In this document: positions 1,588-50,636 of the stretch, piece by piece | How the letters are laid out: each line of letters begins with the position of its first letter | Position numbering within the stretch: position 1 is the first letter of the stretch | Source: Clostridiales bacterium | GTDB lineage: Bacteria; Bacillota; Clostridia; Oscillospirales; CAG-272 | Reading direction: 5' to 3' | NCBI GenBank assembly: GCA_022791195.1 | Contig: JAAVYP010000051.1 | Location: 44,703 to 108,702, forward strand | Length of the DNA stretch: 64,000 bases | Program-made: the position numbers and the translations under genes | Notes under the pieces: generated by a model | Told to the model about the DNA's origin: nothing | The model's database searches: none | What the model saw: only the letters and a program-made list of their open reading frames with translations

Positions 1588-4500
1588 ATGGCAGACGTTA
1601 CATGGACCGAAAAACAGCGGCAGGCGATCACCGCCGACAGTCATGGCAAGTCCGGCAAGATTTTGGTCTCTGCCGCGGCCGGCAGTGGAAAAACCGCTGT
1701 TTTAACCGAACGAATCATCGAAAAAATTCAAAATAATGCCGATCTTTCGCGTATGCTGATTGTCACCTTTACCAACGCGGCAGCCGGCGAATTAAAAGCA
1801 CGCATGAGCGCCAAATTGACAGAAGCGCTGGAAAAAGACCCCACCAACAAACATTTGTCCAAACAAATCACATCCCTTTCCAGCGCGCATATCGCTACGA
1901 TTGACAGCTTTTGCTATGAAATTGTCAAAAGAAATTATGAAAAGCTGGGGCTACCCTGCCGCATGCGCATTGCCGAAGAAGCAGAAATATCCTTATTAAA
2001 AACCAAGTTGATGAACTCCCTTCTGGATGATATTTACGGCGGATTCATTGCATTTGACGATTTTGCTTCTTTTACCGAACCCTTTATCAACGACCGGGAC
2101 GATTCTCTGCCCGATCTATTCCTTTCGCTATACGACCAGCTTTCCTCTTACGAAAGCGGCATTGAATCAATCAAAACAACGGCTGAAGAGTTATCAGATC
2201 AAGCTGAAAAGCCATTTTTTGCGTCCACCTACGGTCAATTTGTACATACCTATCTTACTTCCTTTGTTGCGTGCTATCAAAAGCCGGTGCACCGCGCCGT
2301 CGCTTTTTTTGAAGAGTCAGACAGCAAAAGCGCCATACGCTACAGACAGGAATTTGAAAATATAGCACTGTGTCTGGAAGCAATGCAAGACGCATTGGCG
2401 CGTGAGCATTTTGAGGACAGCCAAGCAGCGGCGCTTTCCTACTCCTCACTGTCGCTGGCGGGCGCCCGTATCGGCAATGGATCAGAAGAACAAACCATCA
2501 AGGCCGTGCGCAATGCTTTCAAAAAAGATTTATCGCTGATTAACGAGCGTTTTTTCTGCCATACCCAAGAGCAAATTACCACTTGTTTCAGAGAAAGTGC
2601 TGCTATGCTGTTTAAGCTGTACCAGATGCTGTCTATTTTTGATAAAGCTTTCACAGAAGAAAAAATCAATCGCGGCGTTCTTGATTATCCGGACATTGAA
2701 CGCTATGCATTAAAGCTGCTGCAAAATGACGGCAAGCCCAGTGAATTTGCACTTGCCTACGGAGCAAATTTTGATGAAATCTATATCGATGAATACCAAG
2801 ACATAAACGAAGTGCAGGACACGATTTTCAGAATGCTCTCCACCAACTCTCACACCTTTATGGTAGGTGACATGAAACAAAGCATTTACGGTTTTCGCGG
2901 GGCAGCACCGGATATTTTTGCTTCCTACCGAGATCGTTTTCCGCTCTATGATGATGCCCGGCAACAGGACTGCTTTACCATCTTTTTAGCCAACAACTTT
3001 CGCTGTGCCGAACCAATAGTACGCTTCGCTAACAAGTTGTTTTCTTCCATGATGAACAACACCTACGGCAAAGCGGCCTATCTGCCGGAGGATAATTTAG
3101 TCTATTCAAAAAAAGAAGAGAAAAAAATCACAGCGCCGGTTGAAATCACGCTGTTTGATCAATCACCCAAAGAACGTGCCGACATCACAGAAGAAGAATG
3201 GGTCGCGCAAAAGATAAAAGCGCTCATCGCCGAAGGATACGCGCCGGATGACATCGCGCTTCTTTTCCGCTCGCCAAAAAAGAGCGCGAAACGCTTTGAA
3301 GAAGCGCTGAAAAACCTTTCCATTCCCTGTTTTTCGAGTGATGCCAGCTCCTTTTTTGAAAATGCAGAAATTCTATTAGCCATGTGCCTTTTAAACGTCA
3401 TTGACAATCCAAGACGTGATATTTATCTGGCCGGTGCGTTGCAAAGTCCTATCTTCGGCTTGACTTTGGATGAGTTAGCGCGCATCCGGCAATGCACGAA
3501 GCCGCAAAAACCCGCCTCTCTTTACGATGCGGTTTTGCTCTTCCACGAATCGGAGCCGAATCCGAAACTGTCTCATTTTTTCGGCTGGTTAGCAGACATG
3601 CGCGCATATGCGCAAACCAAGCCCATTGACAAGCTGCTGTGGCACATTTATACCACCACCTCCCTGCTTTCCTGCGCATATCATCACAACACGGACGAGG
3701 CAAAAGCAAGACGCGCCAATTTAATGCTGCTATACGAACATGCGCGCCATTTTGAAGCAGGCTCTTTTAAAGGTCTTTACAATTTCATACTCTATATGAA
3801 TCAAATGATGCAGAGTGAAGCAAGAGTGGAAGAAGCCAAAGCGCAAAACGACGCCATGCCGGCAGTAAAAATTATGTCGGTTCATGCCTCTAAGGGCCTT
3901 GAATTTAAGGTGTGTTTTTTATGCGCGTGTGAATATACATCCAAAAGCGAAGAAAGCCGCGATGGCATCTTAATGGCCAAGGACTTTGGCTTAGGCCTTT
4001 ATACGCCCGACACCACCGGATTTGCCAAGATCAACGGCATTGTTCGCAAAACCGTCGGATTAAAATTAGAGGCCGACCGAACCGAAGAAGAAATGCGCGT
4101 ACTGTACGTAGCCTTAACCCGTGCCAAAGAGCGATTATTTGTCACGGCCTCTCCATCAAGCGTAAAAACTCTGATGGAAAGATGTCAGCAAAGCGCTGCG
4201 CTTTATTCAAAATTCGCCCTTCTCTCCTGCCGTAATTTCATTTCCTTAACCCTCTCCACTCTGCTGCAAAGCAACGAAGAGGATTACACGCTCCAAATCA
4301 TCAAACAAGGTGATACACCATCGTTTATCTCAAACGAAAGCGTCAGCCCCGAACAAGAGACGGCTCCATCACAATCAATGCCTGATTATGAGACTTGCTG
4401 CCAGATCATCAAGGAACGGTTTGATTTTTCCTATCCATACACATATCTTTCCCATTTGCCATCCAAGCTGTCTGTCTCGAATCTGTTTCCTGGCATTCTG

Positions 4501-11699: not shown

Positions 11700-11775
11700 C
11701 GGGGTGTAGCGCAGTTGGTAGCGCGCGACATTTGGGATGTTGAGGCCGCAGGTTCGAATCCTGTCACTCCGACCA
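11700..11775 (+). tRNA. tRNA-Pro (anticodon UGG), CCA encoded
   Basis: Cloverleaf folded by hand: 7-bp acceptor stem (CGGGGTG/CACTCCG), D arm GCGC/GCGC, anticodon stem CGACA/TGTTG with loop TT-TGG-GA, T arm GCAGG-TTCGAAT-CCTGT, 76 nt. Confidence 0.9.
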
Positions 11776-27085: not shown

Positions 27086-28240
27086 ATGTATAACATCGAT
27101 AAACTCGGAAGCAAAATTACAGCAGCACGTAAAGCACTTGGACTTACACAGGAACAATTAGCAAAAGAATTATCCGTTACCGCTCAGGCAGTATCCAAAT
27201 GGGAAAGCGGCGCAGGCTTTCCGGATATATCCCTTATTCCGGAAATTGCCCAAATACTGCAAATTCCAATCGACCATTTGTTTGGATACTGCAATGGATT
27301 TGATGAGACGTACCAAGGACTCCCGTTCATTACCAGTTTTGGCAAAACCGCCTGCTATTCAGACAAAGAAGTAGATGTTATCTATCCAGACGGCATCGTC
27401 TATTTCAAAGACCGAAGCGCAGCAAACATTCCGTCACTAACCGTTGATAATTATGGAAAAGGTGAAATTCGTTTTTGTACAAAAGAAACATTTGGCCGCT
27501 CTTTCAAAAACGATAAAACAGGAGAATACAAATATATTTGTTCTGGAATAGAGTGGCTTGAACTAACCGTTTACGAAGCGGACGAGATTCATATTTTCCA
27601 TAGCGAGGATGAAAACACTCATATTATGGCCTATGGCAGTGAATGCTTTACTTCTTCCATAAGATCCTCGAACGATAGAAACAAGCTCTGCCTTACACAA
27701 GAAGCCAATGCAATACAAAAAGGAACTGAACCAAACCGAATTGAAATTTATACTCCCAGCGCACCGCAGCTGTTAACACTAAATCTATATGGAGATACCA
27801 ATGTCATGGTTGAATGTGACTTTGCAGAATTGGGCGTCAGCGTATATAATAAAGCTGAGATTCATTGCCAAAATACTGGTTTACTCGGCATATATGCTCC
27901 GGGAACTTGTTATTTTACCTGCGCGCGTGCGGATGGTGCGAATATAGAAATAAATGGCGCAGCCACCATTGAAATTGAAGAACCGCATAAATATGTCCAT
28001 CTTACTTCAAGCGGTGATTGCAATGTTAACCTTGGCAATGCTCATATTGATTATTTAGAAACCAATCTAAGCGGTACAGGAATATTAAATGCCCCTGATC
28101 TCACCGTACAAAATGCGAAACTCTGCGCACAAAATCAAAACGATATTATATTAGGCCGCATTGTGGAATATTCCTATGAAGCACTGCGAAACAATGCACA
28201 ATTAAGCGTCAGGCATCGTGGATGGAATGAAAATGATTAA
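27086..28240 (+). CDS. XRE-family HTH protein with a C-terminal domain of about 310 aa and unknown function
   Basis: LGLTQEQLAKELSVTAQAVSKWESG. The C-terminal part is repetitive and beta-rich, with no assignable motif. Confidence 0.7.
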   Translation: MYNIDKLGSKITAARKALGLTQEQLAKELSVTAQAVSKWESGAGFPDISLIPEIAQILQIPIDHLFGYCNGFDETYQGLPFITSFGKTACYSDKEVDVIYPDGIVYFKDRSAANIPSLTVDNYGKGEIRFCTKETFGRSFKNDKTGEYKYICSGIEWLELTVYEADEIHIFHSEDENTHIMAYGSECFTSSIRSSNDRNKLCLTQEANAIQKGTEPNRIEIYTPSAPQLLTLNLYGDTNVMVECDFAELGVSVYNKAEIHCQNTGLLGIYAPGTCYFTCARADGANIEINGAATIEIEEPHKYVHLTSSGDCNVNLGNAHIDYLETNLSGTGILNAPDLTVQNAKLCAQNQNDIILGRIVEYSYEALRNNAQLSVRHRGWNEND

Positions 28241-28492: not shown

Positions 28493-29335
28493 ATGAAAAG
28501 ACTTGCTTTATTATTAATTTTTTTATGTATGATTTTTTTGGTCTCCTGCAAGGATAATAAACACAATCAGCCGACTGAACCTTTGAACACAGAGCCCTCC
28601 ATCCTACAAACCGAACCTGTCACAGAACCCACTGCGACAGAGCCTGCGCCCACCGAATCGCCGGTTATTTATGACGAAAACGGCGATCTGCCGGCCGCTG
28701 TTATGTATCATTTAATTATGGAAGAGCCCTACAATAAAAACACGGCGCTTTTTGTTCGTCCGGGCGATTTTGAAGACCAGATTAAAGCCCTTATTGAAGA
28801 GGATTATGTTTTTCTTTTTGCCAATGATTATCGGAAAACAAAACAAAAAAGCATTATGATCACTTTTGATGATGGTTATTTAGATAATTATACGACCATG
28901 TTTCCAATTATCAAAAAATATAATGTCAAGGTAACTATATTCTTAATTACTGATTCAATTGGCAAACCCGAGCACATGACCGAAGAACAAATCAAAGAAA
29001 TGGCAGACAGCGGTCTTGTTAAATTTGAAAGTCACACCGCCACCCACCCTTCACTGCCAAATCTCAACGAACAGCAATTAATCAATGAATTTGAAAGATC
29101 CATTACCAAAATTGAAGAATTGACCGGCCAAAAGGTCACCGCTTTGGCTTATCCCGGCGGTAATTTTGATCAAAATGTAATTGATGTCGCCGAACGGTAT
29201 TTTAAATACTGTTATTTGGCCAGAACCTACGGCCAAGAAGGGTTTACACCTGATATGGCCATTCCCCGTTACTATGGAGCACGGGATATGTCGACAGAAA
29301 GCTATTTACAAATGATCAAAAAACATTTAAAATAG
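28493..29335 (+). CDS. Polysaccharide deacetylase (NodB/CE4) lipoprotein
   Basis: Lipobox LVSC, T/E/P-rich linker, ITFDDGYLDNY and HTATHPSL motifs. Confidence 0.85.
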   Translation: MKRLALLLIFLCMIFLVSCKDNKHNQPTEPLNTEPSILQTEPVTEPTATEPAPTESPVIYDENGDLPAAVMYHLIMEEPYNKNTALFVRPGDFEDQIKALIEEDYVFLFANDYRKTKQKSIMITFDDGYLDNYTTMFPIIKKYNVKVTIFLITDSIGKPEHMTEEQIKEMADSGLVKFESHTATHPSLPNLNEQQLINEFERSITKIEELTGQKVTALAYPGGNFDQNVIDVAERYFKYCYLARTYGQEGFTPDMAIPRYYGARDMSTESYLQMIKKHLK

Positions 29336-29404
29336 AATGAGAGAGCCTATGATAGAATATAAATAATATAGAGGCAAGCCCTGTATATGTTTATAGCGCT
29401 ATTA

Positions 29405-29523
29405 TATCAAAAGGGAGTAGTTATCAGGTATGCTCAACAATCTCGGATGAAAGTCCTGGGTATACCCCTTCTTCGTAAGGAACAAGACTTTTGGTACCTA
29501 TGTGCCAAAAGTCTTTTATTTTA
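29405..29523 (+). promoter_or_regulatory. yybP-ykoY-like (Mn2+) riboswitch aptamer plus expression-platform terminator
   Basis: P1 (UAUCAAAAG 29405-29413 / CUUUUGGUA 29488-29496) brackets the conserved GGAGUAG (29414-29420) and ACAAGA (29482-29487). The 11-bp terminator stem 29484-29494/29505-29515 plus U-tract shares its 5' arm with the P1 3' strand. The aptamer is shorter than the examples I recall. Confidence 0.55.
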
Positions 29524-29540
29524 TGTCTTGGAGGAATACA

Positions 29541-30521
29541 ATGACAGAAAACATATTCACTTTTATTTTATTTGGAATTGGTATTTTGCTGATTGTCAAA
29601 GGCGGCGATTTATTTGTTGACAGCGCCAGCTTTATTGCCGAGGTATCCGGCGTGCCAAAATTTATTATCGGTGCAACGATCGTAAGCCTTGCTACCACCA
29701 TGCCCGAGATGCTTGTTTCAGCCTTAGCCGCATATGATTCTCGTTTTCTGACCGGGGCCATGGCAGACGATAAAGTGCTCATGGCGATTGGCAACGCCGT
29801 TGGTTCGGTCACCTGCAATATCGGTATGATTTTAGCGATCAGCATATTGTTTATGCCTTCTATTATTGAACGAAAAAAATTCATTCCTAAAGCAATTTTG
29901 CTGATTGTTTCCATCATATCCTTGACACTGCTCTGCCTATCCGGCACCCTGACTTTGCAAAAAAGCATTGTTCTGCTCATCATATTTATCATCTTTATTG
30001 CGGAAAATATCAAGGGCGCTAAAAGCGAGATGCAGAATATTCCCTCTGTACAAACTGCAGCAAAAGGAGACATTGTTAAAAAAGTTGTTTTCCTCATTAT
30101 CGGAGCGGCGGCCATCGTTATTGGATCAGAGCTGTTAGTTGATAAAGGAAGCGTGATTGCGAAAATGCTGGGCGTATCCGAAAAAATCATTGGGTTCACG
30201 GCTATTGCCATCGGAACCAGTTTGCCAGAATTAGTAACGACGGTTTCTTCGCTAATCAAAAAAGAGCCTTCTTTAGGCGTTGGCAATATTATCGGCGCTA
30301 ATTTAATTGACATTGCCCTGATTTTGCCTGTCTGCGCAATCATTAAAGGCGGCGCGTTGCCGGTAGAGGCCACCACCGCTCGTTTGGATATACCTATTTG
30401 TCTTTTGGTCACCTGCATTGCCCTCATTCCGCCTATGTTTACGAAAAAATTCATGAAATGGCAAGGGGCCGCCATGTTGACCACTTATGTTGCTTATCTC
30501 ATATACACATGCATAGGGTAA
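29541..30521 (+). CDS. CaCA-family cation antiporter (YrbG/Na+:Ca2+ exchanger-like)
   Basis: Two alpha-repeats (GNAVGSVTCN, GNIIGANLID) and about 10 TM helices. ATG at 29541 after GGAGGAA. Confidence 0.85.
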   Translation: MTENIFTFILFGIGILLIVKGGDLFVDSASFIAEVSGVPKFIIGATIVSLATTMPEMLVSALAAYDSRFLTGAMADDKVLMAIGNAVGSVTCNIGMILAISILFMPSIIERKKFIPKAILLIVSIISLTLLCLSGTLTLQKSIVLLIIFIIFIAENIKGAKSEMQNIPSVQTAAKGDIVKKVVFLIIGAAAIVIGSELLVDKGSVIAKMLGVSEKIIGFTAIAIGTSLPELVTTVSSLIKKEPSLGVGNIIGANLIDIALILPVCAIIKGGALPVEATTARLDIPICLLVTCIALIPPMFTKKFMKWQGAAMLTTYVAYLIYTCIG

Positions 30522-31226: not shown

Positions 31227-34200
31227 TCAATCAAAGGCAAATGTAATCTGATTGGTTTCGGATAAGTCTTTCAGCACACCGGCTTGTGACAAAGTTTCAA
31301 TCACGGCTTTGGTAATGCCGGTACGATGAAGCAAATCTTCTTTAGAAAGAAACTCTCCATTCTCCCTTGCCTCGATAATTTTATCAGCGGCCGATTCACC
31401 AAGTCCGGAGAGCGAAGAGAACGGCAGTCTGATCTTTCCGTTTTCGGGCAAAAAGGCATGAGAATCTGACTTATACAAATCCACCGGCAAAAAGGAAATG
31501 CCGCGGGCTAAACATTCGTTCGCCAGCTGTAAGCTGGATACCATTTCTTTTTCTTTTTGGGTTGCATCATTTCCCTTTTTCTCAATGTCTTTAATCGTTG
31601 CCAGCAAATGCCGCCTGCCCTGCATAACAATGGCTGCATCAAAACCGCCCGGTGCCACTGTGAAGAACGCGGCGTAAAATTCCATCGGTCTATATACTTT
31701 ATACCAACCGATGCGAAGGGCCGAAATTACATATGCAGCTGCATGCGCTTTAGGGAACATGTATTTGATTTTCTCGCAGGAGTCCAAATACCATTCAGGA
31801 ATCTGCTGTTCACGCATGGCCTCTTTGTATTCGTCTTTGAGGCCTTTTCCCTTTCGCACATCCTCCATGATTTTGAAGGCTGTGCTTTTTTCAACGCCAT
31901 GATAAATTAAATAGGTCATGATGCTGTCACGTGTACCGATTACCTCTGAAATGCTGCAGGTCCCCTCACGAATCAGTTCTTGGGCATTGCCCAGCCACAC
32001 ATCCGTACCATGAGAAAGTCCCGAAATCTGCAAAAGGTCTGAAAAGTTCTTTGGCTTTGTTTCGGATATCATCTGCTGTACAAACCGCGTGCCAAACTCA
32101 GGCAAGCCATAGGTACCCACCGTACAACCGATATCATCCGGACTGACGCCAAGCGGTTTCACCGAAAGGAACAGCTCCATGACTTTGGGATCGCTCATGG
32201 GCACATCCAAAACCGAGGTATTGGTATAAGTTTCAAGCATTTTATATTTGGTTGGAATATCATGCCCCAACTCATCTAACTTGAGGATGGTGTCATGCAG
32301 ATAGGAAAACGGAAAATGCGTGGTAATAATATCCGTGTTGGGGTCATCAGCCGGGTGCTCAACCGGCGTAAAATCATATACCTCATACTCACGAGGAATA
32401 ACCACAATGCCGCCGGGATGCTGTCCTGTCGTCCTTTTTACACACATACAGTTCGTCACAAGGCGGTTAATTTCCGCCTTGTTAATCGAAACGCCTTTTT
32501 CCTCTAAATATTTCATGACAAAGCCAAAAGCTGTCTTTTGCGCCACCGTACCCAGTGTACCCGCCCGGAACACATTTTCTTTGCCAAAGAGCGTTTCGGT
32601 ATATTTATGGACACGTCCCTGCACATCGCCCGAGAAGTTCAGGTCAATATCAGGTGATTTTTCACCATAGAATCCCAAAAAGGTTTCAAAGGGTATATCA
32701 TGGCCGTCCTGCACCAGCGGTTCCCCGCAGTGAGGGCAATTTTTCGCAGGAAGGTCAAAACCGGAGCCAACCGAGCCATCGTCAATAAACTCTGAATATT
32801 TACAAGATGGACAGCGATAATGAGGCTGCAATGGATTGACCTCTGAAATGCCCGACATAGAGGCAACAAAGGAAGAACCGACCGAACCGCGCGAGCCAAC
32901 CAAATAGCCTTCCCCTTCGCTGTAGGCCACTAACTTTTGGGCAATCATATACAGCACAGCAAAGCCATTTTTTATAATTGAGGTCAATTCCTTATCCAAA
33001 CGATCCTTGACCTGCGGCGGCAGCTCTGCGCCGTATAATTCATGCGCTCTGTCCCAGCAAAGCCTTTGCAGATCCTCTTCCGCCCCTTCCATTTTAGGGG
33101 TGAAGGTGCCGTCGGGAATCGGTTGCAGCACATCAATTTGGTCATTGATCAAGTTTGTATTTTCAACAACCACCTCATAGGCCTTTTTTTCGCCCAAATA
33201 GGCAAATTCCGCCAGCATCTCATCGGTTGTCCGGAAATAAAGCCCGCTCTCTTCCTCGCCCATTTTTTTGACCGACATAAGCACCTGTCTGTAAATCTCG
33301 TCGCTTTTTTCCATAAAATGCGCGTCGCAGGTAGCAACAACCGGTTTTCCGGTTTTTTCACCCAATTTGATAATCGTGCGGTTAATCTCGTGCAGTCCCT
33401 CTACATCAGCGATTTGTCCTTTTTTGATCAAAAAGGCGTTATTGCAGTCAGGCTGAATTTCAAGATAATCATAATAGGAGGCAATCTTGATCAGATCGCC
33501 AAAAGGCTTGTTATCTAATATCGCGCTGTACAACTCACCATACACACAGGCAGAGCCGATAATTAGCCCTTCCCGATATTCATTTAACACGGTTTTAGGT
33601 ATACGAGGGGTTTTGTAAAGATAGTTTAGGTAACTCATCGAAACTAACTTATACAAATTTTTAAGCCCCACCTGATTTTTTGCCAAAATAATCATATGAT
33701 TCGGGCGCAGCTTTAAGGGATCGCTCCCCGCGCTCATCGCGGCGGACATGCCGTTAAAATCACGCACGCCTTCTAACTTTAATTTGTCCACCATACAAAA
33801 GAAAATGGCAGCCAGCATTTTGGCGTCATCACTGGCACGGTGATGGTTAAACTCACCCAATTTAAAATAAGCGGCCAGCGTATCCAACCGATGCCGTTTC
33901 AGTTCCGGATTCAGATAGCGAGATAACGCAACCGTATCCAAATAGGGATTGGTAAACAATATTTTGTTTTTATCACATACCGAACGAATAAAGCTGATAT
34001 CAAACCCTGCGTTGTGAGCAATCAAAATGCGGTCGCCGCAAAAATCCAAAAAGCTTTGCACCGCCTCAAAGGGACTTGGTGCTCCCTTGACCATTTCATC
34101 GGTAATGCCGGTTAATTCTACAATATTTGCAGGGATAGGCATGCCGGGATCCACATAAGTACAAAATTCATCGACAACCTCGCCGCCCCGTACCAGCACT

Positions 34201-35636
34201 GCACCAATTTCGGTAATTTCACAGGTGTAAACCGAAAGGCCGGTGGTTTCAATATCAAAGACCACATATTCATCGTCAAAATCGGCAGATGATTCTCCAT
34301 AAAAAGCCCGGGCCGTATCGTCAACAAAATAGGCCTCCATGCCGTAAATAACCTTCATGCCGGTCTTTTTCTGTATTTCCATTGCCTCGGGATAGGCCTG
34401 CACATTACCATGGTCGGTCAGCGCAATAGCAGGCATGCCCCATCGTTTCGCTGTCTGAATCGCATCGCAAGGCCAAATGGTTGAATCCATACGGGACATA
34501 TTGGTATGTAAATGCAACTCCACCCGTTTTTTGGGGGCTTTGTCCTCTCTTTTCAGCAAAGTAACCAGTGAAATGGCTTTGGGTGTAATGGCAAGCTCTC
34601 CATCAAATTTATCGATCTTCAGATTGCCCTTTACCGCTAAAGCCGCATCATAAAAATCGACTGATGCTTTGCCCTTTATCCGCTTTTCTTTGGTTTCTTT
34701 AATCGCTTTGGTAATCACACCGGCGGCCTCATTATCGGCAATTAGTTTCACCATAATTGAGGCGTCGTGATCAGTGATTGACAAATTAAGAATAGTCTTT
34801 TCACCCGATCTGGTTACCCTTTCATCAACTGTCACCACTTGGCCTAACACCACCACGTTGTTTTCTTCGGCCGTGAGATCACGCAATGCCTTTGGATTTA
34901 TCGCAAAATCACTGCCGAAAAGAATGCGTGGATTAGACACGTCAAACCGACAATGACCAATCGTGTAAATGGTATCAGTTTCCGCCTGAAAGGTAAGTTC
35001 CTCACTCATGAGGGTACTGACCTTTTCGGCCGGCGGCATCTGTTCGGCATTGTCTTCTTCGACGGTCTGTTTTTTCATATTTTCGATATTTTCACGACGA
35101 ATGCGGGATAAAGTTTCTTCCTGTTCTCTCACCATTTGTTCATAGCCGGCCCACGGCGCAGCACCACGGCGCAGCACCACCTCAAAGGAGAGAGAAAATT
35201 CATCCATCAAAATTTGTTTGATAACATCGTTGGTTTTAGCCTCGTTTAATAATAAAACACCGCCGTTGGTAGACTGTATATCAATCGTAATCATATTATC
35301 CTGCACAGCATATTGAAAACCGTCAAAAAAGCCGCGGGACACCGTTCCAATCCGCTCTGTTTCCATAATGACTTGAGGAATATAGCGCGGCTCAAACAGA
35401 CTGCTGTCATATTTAGGACAAATGCGCACGGAATTGACCTCATAAGCTTTTTTGATATGAGATTCAACTTCATATAATTCAATTTTGTTGACAATCTGCT
35501 CAAAAGCAGCATCCACTTCAATAAACTTATGCTCGCGATCCACCCGAACCGCCTGACTGACGCCGCTTTCCAGAAGCATTCGCTCGGAGGGCGTCGGGGC
35601 ATATTTTTTAAATACTTCCAATAATGTTTTGGTCAT
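31227..35636 (-). CDS. polC: DNA polymerase III alpha subunit, PolC type
   Basis: 1469 aa. PHP domain (HLHTNMS, DHGNVQAYPEA), inserted DEDD exonuclease (VVFDIETTGLS), zinc finger CPSC...CPHC. Confidence 0.95.
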   Translation of the reverse strand: MTKTLLEVFKKYAPTPSERMLLESGVSQAVRVDREHKFIEVDAAFEQIVNKIELYEVESHIKKAYEVNSVRICPKYDSSLFEPRYIPQVIMETERIGTVSRGFFDGFQYAVQDNMITIDIQSTNGGVLLLNEAKTNDVIKQILMDEFSLSFEVVLRRGAAPWAGYEQMVREQEETLSRIRRENIENMKKQTVEEDNAEQMPPAEKVSTLMSEELTFQAETDTIYTIGHCRFDVSNPRILFGSDFAINPKALRDLTAEENNVVVLGQVVTVDERVTRSGEKTILNLSITDHDASIMVKLIADNEAAGVITKAIKETKEKRIKGKASVDFYDAALAVKGNLKIDKFDGELAITPKAISLVTLLKREDKAPKKRVELHLHTNMSRMDSTIWPCDAIQTAKRWGMPAIALTDHGNVQAYPEAMEIQKKTGMKVIYGMEAYFVDDTARAFYGESSADFDDEYVVFDIETTGLSVYTCEITEIGAVLVRGGEVVDEFCTYVDPGMPIPANIVELTGITDEMVKGAPSPFEAVQSFLDFCGDRILIAHNAGFDISFIRSVCDKNKILFTNPYLDTVALSRYLNPELKRHRLDTLAAYFKLGEFNHHRASDDAKMLAAIFFCMVDKLKLEGVRDFNGMSAAMSAGSDPLKLRPNHMIILAKNQVGLKNLYKLVSMSYLNYLYKTPRIPKTVLNEYREGLIIGSACVYGELYSAILDNKPFGDLIKIASYYDYLEIQPDCNNAFLIKKGQIADVEGLHEINRTIIKLGEKTGKPVVATCDAHFMEKSDEIYRQVLMSVKKMGEEESGLYFRTTDEMLAEFAYLGEKKAYEVVVENTNLINDQIDVLQPIPDGTFTPKMEGAEEDLQRLCWDRAHELYGAELPPQVKDRLDKELTSIIKNGFAVLYMIAQKLVAYSEGEGYLVGSRGSVGSSFVASMSGISEVNPLQPHYRCPSCKYSEFIDDGSVGSGFDLPAKNCPHCGEPLVQDGHDIPFETFLGFYGEKSPDIDLNFSGDVQGRVHKYTETLFGKENVFRAGTLGTVAQKTAFGFVMKYLEEKGVSINKAEINRLVTNCMCVKRTTGQHPGGIVVIPREYEVYDFTPVEHPADDPNTDIITTHFPFSYLHDTILKLDELGHDIPTKYKMLETYTNTSVLDVPMSDPKVMELFLSVKPLGVSPDDIGCTVGTYGLPEFGTRFVQQMISETKPKNFSDLLQISGLSHGTDVWLGNAQELIREGTCSISEVIGTRDSIMTYLIYHGVEKSTAFKIMEDVRKGKGLKDEYKEAMREQQIPEWYLDSCEKIKYMFPKAHAAAYVISALRIGWYKVYRPMEFYAAFFTVAPGGFDAAIVMQGRRHLLATIKDIEKKGNDATQKEKEMVSSLQLANECLARGISFLPVDLYKSDSHAFLPENGKIRLPFSSLSGLGESAADKIIEARENGEFLSKEDLLHRTGITKAVIETLSQAGVLKDLSETNQITFAFD

Positions 35637-49362: not shown

Positions 49363-50636
49363 TTTTCAATGGCTGCTCCATTAAAACGAACAGGTATACC
49401 GGCATTTTTAGCAACAGGCTTATGAATAATCGGCTTCCATTCCACTCTGGCAAACAGCGCATAAATCGAAATAGGCACATAGGTGAACATAAAAAACGGA
49501 AAAGTAAATAAATACAACATTTTTTTAGCAGCGTGACAATGTATCTTTTTCCATTCGGAAATGACAGTCAGCGTTCCCATGAGCACAAAAAGACCATAGA
49601 ATCCTAAAAACGCCTGTGCCAACACAATCAAAAGATCTGATGCCAAAGGATCACCCACAGCAGCCGCATAAATAAAGGCAACACTGTCGATCACAAAAAG
49701 CAGCAATGTAATCAGCATGCTCGGTGCAATCGTCATCATCATATCGAAAGCAGAAAACTTTGCCCCTTTAAACATAGAAGTAAACAGCTTGCCGCCATAG
49801 TTAAAGAACACTTGGTAAAAGCCCTTGGCCCATCTAAGCCGCTGTCTTGCCGACTGCTTAAGCTTAACAGGCTGCTCGTCATATAATACAGCATCGTCAC
49901 AATAACCAACTTTTTCCCCGTGAACAATGCTGTCAATCGTAAATTCAATATCCTCGGTCAGCAAATTATGCTTCCAGCCGCAGTTGCGGCGCACAATATC
50001 ATCGCAAATTAAAAAGCCGGTACCGGATATAGCACAGCTTGTGCCTAAAATCATACGTGCGTTATTCAAAAAACGTGCTTCACGCAAAAACCAAAGAGAG
50101 GATGCCGCTGACAACCAGTTATCACCGTAATTTTTCGAGTTGCGATAGCTGGTAACAATTCGATAGCCATGATCAAAAGTAGCATTCATGTTGGCAATAT
50201 AATTTTCATCTAATATATTATCCGCATCAAAGACAAAGAAACCCTCATAGCCGCGCTCGGCATAATCGCTGTAAATAATATTAAAGATATAATTTAGTGC
50301 ATAGCCCTTGCCGATATGCGCAAGGTCATTTCTTGCATAGACATACGCACCCTTCGAGGCAGCTACTTCTGCCGTACGGTCGGTACAGTTATCGGCAATA
50401 ACAAATACGTCAAACAACTCTTTGGGATAATTTTGCTGATTTAAGCTGTCCAGCAACTCACCAATCACCGCTTGCTCATTACGCGCTGAAATAATCACAG
50501 CAAATTTATGGAGCTTTTCTGCTTCAAATTTTTTCGGTTTGCAAAAAAGCGCAACAGCAACATAAAAAAACTGATACGCAAAACAAAGTGTAAAAACAAC
50601 AAACAGTACAAAATTAATAAAAATTACAGTACTCAC
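49359..50636 (-). CDS. Membrane-embedded family-2 glycosyltransferase (processive, QxxRW type)
   Basis: N-terminal TM helix, GT-A core (VIISARNE, FDADN), QRLRWAKG, C-terminal TM bundle. GTG start. The stop overlaps the response-regulator start (ATGA). Confidence 0.85.
   Translation of the reverse strand: MSTVIFINFVLFVVFTLCFAYQFFYVAVALFCKPKKFEAEKLHKFAVIISARNEQAVIGELLDSLNQQNYPKELFDVFVIADNCTDRTAEVAASKGAYVYARNDLAHIGKGYALNYIFNIIYSDYAERGYEGFFVFDADNILDENYIANMNATFDHGYRIVTSYRNSKNYGDNWLSAASSLWFLREARFLNNARMILGTSCAISGTGFLICDDIVRRNCGWKHNLLTEDIEFTIDSIVHGEKVGYCDDAVLYDEQPVKLKQSARQRLRWAKGFYQVFFNYGGKLFTSMFKGAKFSAFDMMMTIAPSMLITLLLFVIDSVAFIYAAAVGDPLASDLLIVLAQAFLGFYGLFVLMGTLTVISEWKKIHCHAAKKMLYLFTFPFFMFTYVPISIYALFARVEWKPIIHKPVAKNAGIPVRFNGAAIEK

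Follow-up and report, generated by a model that had tools for sequence, protein, structure and literature searches.

Riboswitches of the yybP-ykoY (Mn2+) family are the closest described relatives of a leader element that we analysed at positions 29405-29524 of a 64,000-nucleotide stretch of a Clostridiales bacterium (assembly GCA_022791195.1, contig JAAVYP010000051.1; this whole stretch is called the window), where it precedes a CaCA gene annotated as a calcium/sodium antiporter. In this family, five phosphoryl oxygens of loops L1 and L3 hold Mn2+, together with the N7 of an L3 adenosine that is invariant (A48 in the ACAUACU loop of Xanthomonas oryzae, A41 in the UCAAUUC loop of Lactococcus lactis), and L1 extrudes A10 for an A-minor contact with helix P3.1 (Suddala 2019, PMC6754395); an invariant AGA on the 3' side of L1 was described by Martin 2019 (PMC6649816). 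Stabilisation of P1.1 by the ligand is established as the ON mechanism for other family members (PMC6754395, PMC12153347). The Escherichia coli alx aptamer lacks P2 and folds as a three-way junction, with alx-like riboswitches found only in Enterobacterales (Stephen 2025, PMC12153347), and the Streptococcus pneumoniae mgtA leader is a three-way junction in which P4 is replaced by UNAAA (Martin 2019, PMC6649816); because alx lacks P2 and mgtA lacks P4, the four-way junction is not universal in the family and the loss of one peripheral helix is an accepted variation. The protein encoded by BP3410 of Bordetella pertussis, a CaCA/YRBG-family gene with a yybP-ykoY leader, lowers cellular manganese as measured by inductively coupled plasma mass spectrometry (PMC8546581) and is listed as a YRBG-family Mn exporter in a review (PMC9936198), and yrbG is listed under yybP-ykoY control in Vibrio vulnificus. 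Both unusual aspects of the element described here, the P2-less form and the pairing with a CaCA gene, already have published precedents.

We read the element as a transcriptional ON riboswitch of the yybP-ykoY (Mn2+) family, with a P2-less three-way junction, before a probable Mn2+-exporting CaCA antiporter, and we give this reading a probability of about 0.85. P1, the conserved boxes and the terminator can all be read directly from the sequence (Table 1). The initial annotation had described a 9-bp P1 helix with GGAGUAG and ACAAGA directly inside it, followed by an 11-bp terminator stem, and had cautioned that the segment between the boxes, about 60 nt, was short. The nine pairs of P1, one of them G-U, are present, and both boxes (GGAGUAG 29414-29420, ACAAGA 29482-29487) lie directly inside the helix; the terminator was confirmed as well, and its 5' arm contains the whole P1 3' strand, but its stem of 14 pairs is longer than claimed. 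The shortness of the core is accounted for by the missing P2, for which alx is the precedent (PMC12153347): no P2 hairpin is present in the window element, and the four-way junction of the family is absent.

The metal-binding core is intact. On the 5' side of L1, G29414, G29415, A29416, G, U and A of the window correspond to G8, G9, A10, G11, U12 and A13 of L. lactis, and the loop is completed by AAGA at 29484-29487 and by the P1.2 pairing GUU/AAC. Going by the residue roles given in PMC6754395, this side of L1 would supply phosphate contacts to the metal, and A29416 would be the A-minor adenosine. The window L3 consists of A29437, C, A29439, A, U, C and U, with A29439 corresponding to the discriminator adenosine. 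Taken with its closure, L3 (CUCAACAAUCUC...UGG) matches the consensus of the Rfam family RF00080 (GUCAACAUACUU...UGGC): the window has CUCA-ACAAUCUC...UGGG at the place where the consensus has GUCA-ACAUACU...UGGC, and the top pairs of P3.1 (U-G, C-G and A-U, 29434-29436 with 29457-29459) match the consensus GUCA/UGGC. The metal-contacting residues of PMC6754395 are present in the element, and, as far as its nucleotides can tell, the core is indistinguishable from that of Mn2+-responsive members.

Relatives of the leader were collected through the gene and through the RNA. A scan with the CaCA protein over one genome per GTDB species returned 80 loci, all in Clostridia, of which 76 had enough upstream sequence, and a GGAGUA...RAGAC leader closed by a P1 helix was present in at least 31 of the 76. 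The window architecture is common to eight of these loci (L001, L002, L004, L011, L013, L018, L021 and L023), and the remaining leader-bearing CaCA loci have a P2 hairpin and no P4. For the window and the eight loci, plain MAFFT alignment with RNAalifold gave P1.1, the GGAGUA/RAGA loop, P1.2 (GUU/AAC), the linker, P3.1, a CAACAnnCnC loop, P3.2, UGG and P4, with compensatory changes in 14 of 28 pairs and with GGAGUA, RAGA and CAACA invariant across these nine gene-seeded leaders. The invariant letters then served as a pattern for scanning metagenomes, which gave at least 120 stretches, and a covariance model built from the nine leaders (R1) aligned 80 full-length matches, 70 of them distinct (alignment A2); A2 is fitted to R1, and the search pattern prescribes GGGAGTARTT, CAACA and RAGACT and leaves the stems free.

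Covariation, whose absence together with that of an RF00080 match would by the initial annotation have spoken against its proposal, is strong in the 70 distinct sequences. Standard pairs fill 95.2% of the cells; sliding the partners by 1-3 columns lowers this to 34-45%. Compensatory changes occur in 20 of 28 pairs (434 cells), and none of 500 shuffles reached the observed values. By helix, P1.1 is paired in 95% of cells with compensation in 4/8 pairs, the first pair of P1.2 exchanges G-C for A-U and G-U, P3.1 is 98.6% paired (7/9 pairs compensatory), and all pairs of P3.2 (4/4; 94% of cells paired) and of P4 (3/3; 91%) are compensatory. Among positions that the search pattern did not force, the UGG after P3.2 is conserved at 100/100/91%, two L3 cytidines at 83% and 80%, and the junction A in the linker region at 91%.

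We built a further model, R3, from a structure-guided alignment of 63 P2-less aptamers from which the window, L001 and L002 were left out (the guide model R1 had included them); it matched the window at 29404-29498 with 80.6 bits and an expectation value (E) of 2.5e-16, its only significant match in 64 kb. An intermediate model from plain MAFFT alignment, R2, kept P1 only (8 pairs) with the variable-length stems misaligned, and was replaced by R3 unused. In 96 kb comprising two E. coli loci, R3 found only the two known Mn2+ riboswitches, at their known sites and at full length: mntP (L081 10462-10577; 23.7 bits, E = 0.005) and alx (L082 6372-6505; 21.7 bits, E = 0.016), and the reciprocal search with R1 gave the same picture. 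Aligned to the model, mntP carries its entire P2 hairpin as an insert where the window has its 4-nt linker, and the alx alignment runs end to end with no insertion at the P2 site. With the R3 score, the covariation and the intact core, the initial proposal of a yybP-ykoY-type ON riboswitch before the CaCA gene has held. R3 also gave a weak match at window 49488-49530 on the + strand (14.1 bits, E about 1, 21% GC), which we regard as chance.

Several results count against this reading. The RF00080 model (Rfam 15; gathering threshold 45 bits), whose use on the leader the initial annotation had proposed, gave no match in the whole 64-kb window at the gathering score, and on the 301 bases of 29300-29600 at E <= 10 it again gave no match, the search returning chance matches to unrelated families only. 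The aptamer alone, in its comparative structure, has a folding energy of -23.5 kcal/mol (z = -1.5), an unremarkable stability. In the 70-sequence alignment, conservation of the pattern-fixed letters is uninformative and the pair counts lean towards the model structure, and homology to the proven members mntP and alx, which is detectable, takes the form of weak reciprocal matches (E about 0.005-0.08) with a rough model calibration. A promoter abutting P1, present in six relatives as TTGACA-17-TAnAnT ending 7-11 nt before the helix (L002, L004, L011, L013, L018 and L021), was not found in the window or in its 94%-identical relative L001, where the candidates are weaker and lie further upstream. 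A substrate signature sought in the CaCA alpha-repeats of leader-bearing versus leaderless homologues did not appear, the ion-site motifs being the same, in a comparison that left aside a few high-GC loci translated in the wrong frame and whose leaderless class is approximate since some leaders with imperfect P1 (e.g. L057, L065 and L078) went unflagged. Finally, the S. pneumoniae member has a higher affinity for Ca2+ than for Mn2+, with dissociation constants of 1.72 uM and 54 uM, respectively (about 30-fold by these values; the paper says 50-fold; PMC6649816).

The failed RF00080 search and the ordinary folding energy of the aptamer alone would suit a merely constitutive or protein-controlled attenuator in which GGAGUAG and ACAAGA are fortuitous and no metal is sensed. 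We consider this very improbable: 70 distinct sequences, taken from different genomes and standing before various transporter genes, keep a multi-helix fold through compensatory changes, the unpaired core nucleotides are invariant while the stems vary, and a model made without the window both scores the element at the E value given above and finds proven Mn2+ riboswitches. In our judgement the comparative evidence is decisive over single-sequence thermodynamics.

The weight of the Rfam result itself is small. The gathering threshold is an operational criterion of the curators and not a structural feature, and the proven E. coli mntP leader (L081 10468-10558) scored 44.9 bits against the cutoff of 45 in the same Rfam copy and went unreported at the gathering score, so that a negative RF00080 result says little. 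The RF00080 consensus has a 5' single strand (UUGGGGAGUAGC), a short P2, a P3 of the form GUCA-ACAUACU-...-UGGC and a P4 of about 100 positions with which it ends as printed, and it has no P1 3' strand; the window element lacks P2 and has a short P4, an architecture that forgoes most of the score attainable with this model, and this explains the miss. When 19 P2-less relatives were tested, including those before MntP and GDT1 genes, none reached the gathering score; one of them (L128; 60.5 bits with R1) was matched by RF00080 at 32.8 bits (E = 3e-5) and the other 18 gave nothing, which makes the miss systematic for the P2-less architecture. Rfam at the gathering score found nothing but a tRNA in 20 CaCA loci, none of the P4-less clostridial leaders tested reached the RF00080 gathering score, and the longer leader type of L019 scored 12.4 bits. 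The sole gathering-level Rfam match in the window is a tRNA gene at 11700-11772 (+; 67.4 bits).

With RF00080 failing on the window and reaching its gathering score in 0/19 P2-less relatives and 0/20 CaCA loci, one may ask whether these leaders form a new riboswitch class, unrelated to yybP-ykoY, with convergent short boxes. A class distinct from yybP-ykoY was what we first suspected, and we dropped it on the RF00080 consensus and the reciprocal matches to mntP and alx; it now seems extremely improbable. The order and spacing of P1.1, L1, P1.2, P3.1, L3, P3.2 and P4 are the same, both loops have matching sequences on each of their sides, an inserted P2 hairpin is essentially all that sets mntP apart in the alignment, L128 bridges the R1 and RF00080 models, the regulon is that of yybP-ykoY, and the family already includes a P2-less form (alx) and a P4-less one (S. 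pneumoniae mgtA).

As a yybP-ykoY member, the element can be placed among the described architectures. With the L. lactis yoaB and X. oryzae riboswitches, both transcriptional ON switches of known crystal structure, it shares the L1 sequences GGAGUA/AAGA, an L3 with the discriminator adenosine (UCAAUUC in L. lactis, ACAUACU in X. oryzae and ACAAUCU in the window) and the competition of P1.1 with a terminator; those switches differ in that P2 is stacked on P1.2 in a four-way junction, in place of which the window has the 4-nt linker. Like E. coli alx, the element has a three-way junction of P1, P3 and P4 without P2 and with L1 and L3 intact. In contrast, alx switches at the level of translation, has a long P4 that contains a pause or termination site, is linked to alkaline pH and controls a TerC-family gene (PMC12153347), whereas the window element has a terminator/antiterminator switch, a short P4 and a CaCA gene in a Clostridia genome, and its L3 (ACAAUCUC) resembles the mntP and L. 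lactis types more closely. S. pneumoniae mgtA resembles it as a terminator-type ON switch of a Firmicute, with a three-way junction and a transporter of a classically Ca2+-specific family (PMC6649816), but lacks P4 and keeps P2, the opposite of the window element. The P4-less, mgtA-like form was found upstream of many other clostridial CaCA genes: with P2 and a UNAAA-like stretch it occupies L019 1304-1392, L029 1318-1409, L061 1289-1387 and L056 1261-1362, as well as about 20 further CaCA loci. The B. pertussis BP3410 leader (BprK) shares with the window the combination of a yybP-ykoY riboswitch and a CaCA/YRBG-family gene; it is proteobacterial and, unlike the window element, is recognised by Rfam (E = 8.5e-15 in PMC8546581), so that its architecture is presumably canonical. 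Less expected than the P2-less form itself are its wide occurrence in Clostridia and its coupling to intrinsic terminators.

The overlap of aptamer and expression platform points to an ON switch. The 5' arm of the terminator (29484-29497) contains the P1.1 3' strand, which the aptamer thus shares with the platform, together with the AAGA of L1, so that the terminator excludes both P1.1 and L1. The minimum free energy structure of 29405-29525 (-38.6 kcal/mol, z = -4.5) has the terminator formed and P1 dissolved, and each of the 70 distinct P2-less aptamers has a hairpin with a U-tract that starts within 10 nt of the L1 RAGAC (median, 14.5 uninterrupted pairs). Because the full leader folds into the terminated form and the aptamer alone is weaker, the default state is OFF, and a ligand that stabilises P1.1 would turn the gene ON; the ON-switch logic of the initial annotation is thereby supported by the terminator overlapping P1.1 in 70/70 relatives.

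In the mechanism that we propose, the 14-bp terminator (29484-29515 plus the U-tract) would form cotranscriptionally when ligand is lacking, sequestering the L1 AAGA together with the entire 3' strand of P1.1, a weak and AU-rich helix, and transcription would stop before the CaCA gene. As the cytoplasmic concentration of a divalent metal, most likely Mn2+, rises, the metal would be bound between L1 (GGAGUA/AAGA) and L3 (ACAAUCUC), with N7 of A29439 as a soft ligand. By analogy with the crystal structures of other members, from which the docking step is carried over, binding would dock the P1 leg on the P3 leg, stabilise P1.1 and withhold the 5' arm of the terminator, and RNA polymerase would then read into the antiporter gene (29541-30521), whose product would most likely export Mn2+, or Mn2+ and Ca2+.

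The genes behind the P2-less aptamers are in keeping with this assignment. Among 58 distinct proteins encoded by the first downstream open reading frames (alignment A3), a sample biased by the search pattern and by nine CaCA-derived sequences, there were 25 P-type cation ATPases (Cation_ATPase_N/Cation_ATPase_C), 23 CaCA proteins (nine of them from the window and the loci found via the CaCA protein), three OAD_beta proteins, and one each of MntP, GDT1/UPF0016, a FeoA-FeoB fusion, CitMHS and an ABC ATPase. Oddities apart, this gene set is the known yybP-ykoY regulon, and divalent-cation (Mn2+) efflux genes follow the aptamers. Among the classic targets of the yybP-ykoY family is TerC (YkoY, Alx), and no TerC-family gene occurred among the 58 proteins of this pattern- and CaCA-biased sample. 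The three aptamers before OAD_beta genes (PF03977, the beta subunit of Na+-transporting oxaloacetate decarboxylase) lie about 154 nt upstream of the gene, possibly with a small gene in between (L101 8021-8116, L134 6653-6748 and L152 3069-3164, - strand); to our knowledge, no link between such genes and the family has been reported. At L105, a P2-less aptamer with terminator (82-189) precedes the FeoA-FeoB fusion, a ferrous iron importer (open reading frame 259-2763); as a speculation, an ON switch driving Fe2+ uptake could counteract manganese intoxication.

The same gene list raises the question of the ligand. With unchanged fold and switching, the P2-less clostridial subclass could instead respond to Ca2+, to Ca2+ and Mn2+, or to another divalent ion, the CaCA protein then being a Ca2+ extruder induced by excess Ca2+. 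The dominant downstream families, P-type ATPases (25/58) and CaCA (23/58), are classically Ca2+ transporters, TerC is missing and MntP occurs only once, the S. pneumoniae affinities favour Ca2+ as stated above, and Sherlock and Breaker expect altered metal specificity in some yybP variants (PMC7266159). We nevertheless hold a Ca2+-type ligand to be unlikely, and likewise doubt that the subclass has shifted towards Ca2+ or senses both ions: the discriminator adenosine and all core nucleotides are conserved as in Mn2+-responsive members, MntP and GDT1 genes too stand behind P2-less aptamers, and the sole CaCA protein studied under this family exports manganese (PMC8546581). In S. pneumoniae, moreover, read-through is activated far more effectively by Mn2+ than by Ca2+, although Ca2+ is the more tightly bound ion, and the gene is not induced by Ca2+ stress (PMC6649816); L. 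lactis chimeras, as cited in that paper, were not induced by Ca2+. A shift to Ca2+ or a sensing of both ions, if true, would be the first case of a riboswitch responding to Ca2+ in vivo.

Assignment of the regulated gene to the CaCA/YRBG family is straightforward: its product matches PF01699 (1e-52) over two stretches and TIGR00367 with 209.7 bits against a cutoff of 179.65, and the alpha-repeat motifs ATTMPE, GTSLPE, GNAVGS and GNIIGAN are present. With B. pertussis BP3410 as precedent (PMC8546581), a role of the window antiporter as a metal (Mn) exporter is plausible, and by this analogy the annotated calcium/sodium antiporter probably exports manganese.

Table 1. Features of the leader and its gene, in window coordinates
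Feature	Position	Strand	Description and basis
Candidate sigma-70-type promoters	29305..29353	+	TTTACA-17-TAAAAT 29305-29333; TTTAAA-16-TATGAT 29326-29353; consensus scans only
P1.1 switch helix, 5' strand	29405..29413	+	UAUCAAAAG; pairs with 29488-29496
L1, 5' side	29414..29419	+	GGAGUA; matches RF00080 consensus GGGGAGUAG; invariant in the nine gene-seeded leaders
P1.2, 5' strand	29420..29422	+	GUU; pairs with AAC 29481-29483; RNAalifold prediction
Linker at canonical P2 hairpin site	29423..29426	+	AUCA, 4 nt; alignment to E. coli mntP and alx
P3.1, 5' strand	29427..29436	+	pairs with 29457-29466; window fold and covariation
L3 metal-sensing loop	29437..29444	+	ACAAUCUC; likeness to X. oryzae, L. 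lactis and RF00080 consensus loops
P3.2 hairpin	29445..29456	+	GGAU-GAAA-GUCC; covariation
P3.1, 3' strand	29457..29466	+	UGGGUAUACC; pairs with 29427-29436
P4 hairpin	29467..29480	+	CCU(U)-loop-(A)AGG; covariation
P1.2, 3' strand, then L1, 3' side	29481..29487	+	AAC (29481-29483), AAGA (29484-29487); RAGA invariant in gene-seeded set
P1.1, 3' strand	29488..29496	+	CUUUUGGUA; common to terminator 5' arm; sequence and terminator scan
Intrinsic terminator	29484..29524	+	14-bp stem 29484-29497/29502-29515, loop CUAU, U-tract 29516-29524 (UUAUUUUAU); terminator scan
Ribosome-binding site	29530..29534	+	GGAGG; 6 nt before ATG at 29541
CaCA (YrbG-type) cation antiporter gene	29541..30521	+	326 aa; PF01699, TIGR00367

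Both candidate promoters, which L001 retains, would place the transcription start 38-65 nt upstream of P1; transcription may also reach the leader by read-through from the deacetylase gene upstream. A 77-aa open reading frame overlapping the leader (29387-29620) was dismissed, since the conserved RNA fold accounts for the region. Upstream of the deacetylase gene lies a gene for an HTH_3 + DUF2807 protein (27086-28240, +), and on the - strand is a 1469-aa open reading frame (31227-35636) which, read by eye, we take to encode a PolC-type DNA polymerase III alpha subunit. This identity, if right, suits a Firmicutes origin, and so does the closest CaCA locus, at 94% identity, which comes from a Clostridiales metagenome-assembled genome. 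In another metagenomic contig (L084), a T-box leader match at 2232-2475 (-), scoring 87.6 bits and just below its gathering score of 93, lies downstream of a CaCA-like gene.

For the organism, a gene annotated as a calcium/sodium antiporter stands under a manganese-type ON switch and, for that reason, is probably part of Mn2+ (or Mn2+/Ca2+) detoxification, as for Bordetella BP3410. For the family, a P2-less form reported as confined to Enterobacterales (PMC12153347) is here found widely in Clostridia with intrinsic terminators, and Clostridia of gut and rumen commonly carry this terminator-coupled subclass (at least 120 metagenomic stretches). RF00080 of Rfam 15, as run in this analysis, misses, at the gathering score, both the P2-less and the P4-less forms tested, which are common before clostridial cation transporters, so that Mn2+ riboswitches of gut and rumen Firmicutes have probably been undercounted. 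The 70 distinct aptamers provide a ready alignment for a subfamily model, as well as material on Mn2+ versus Ca2+ control of Ca2+-type transporter families.

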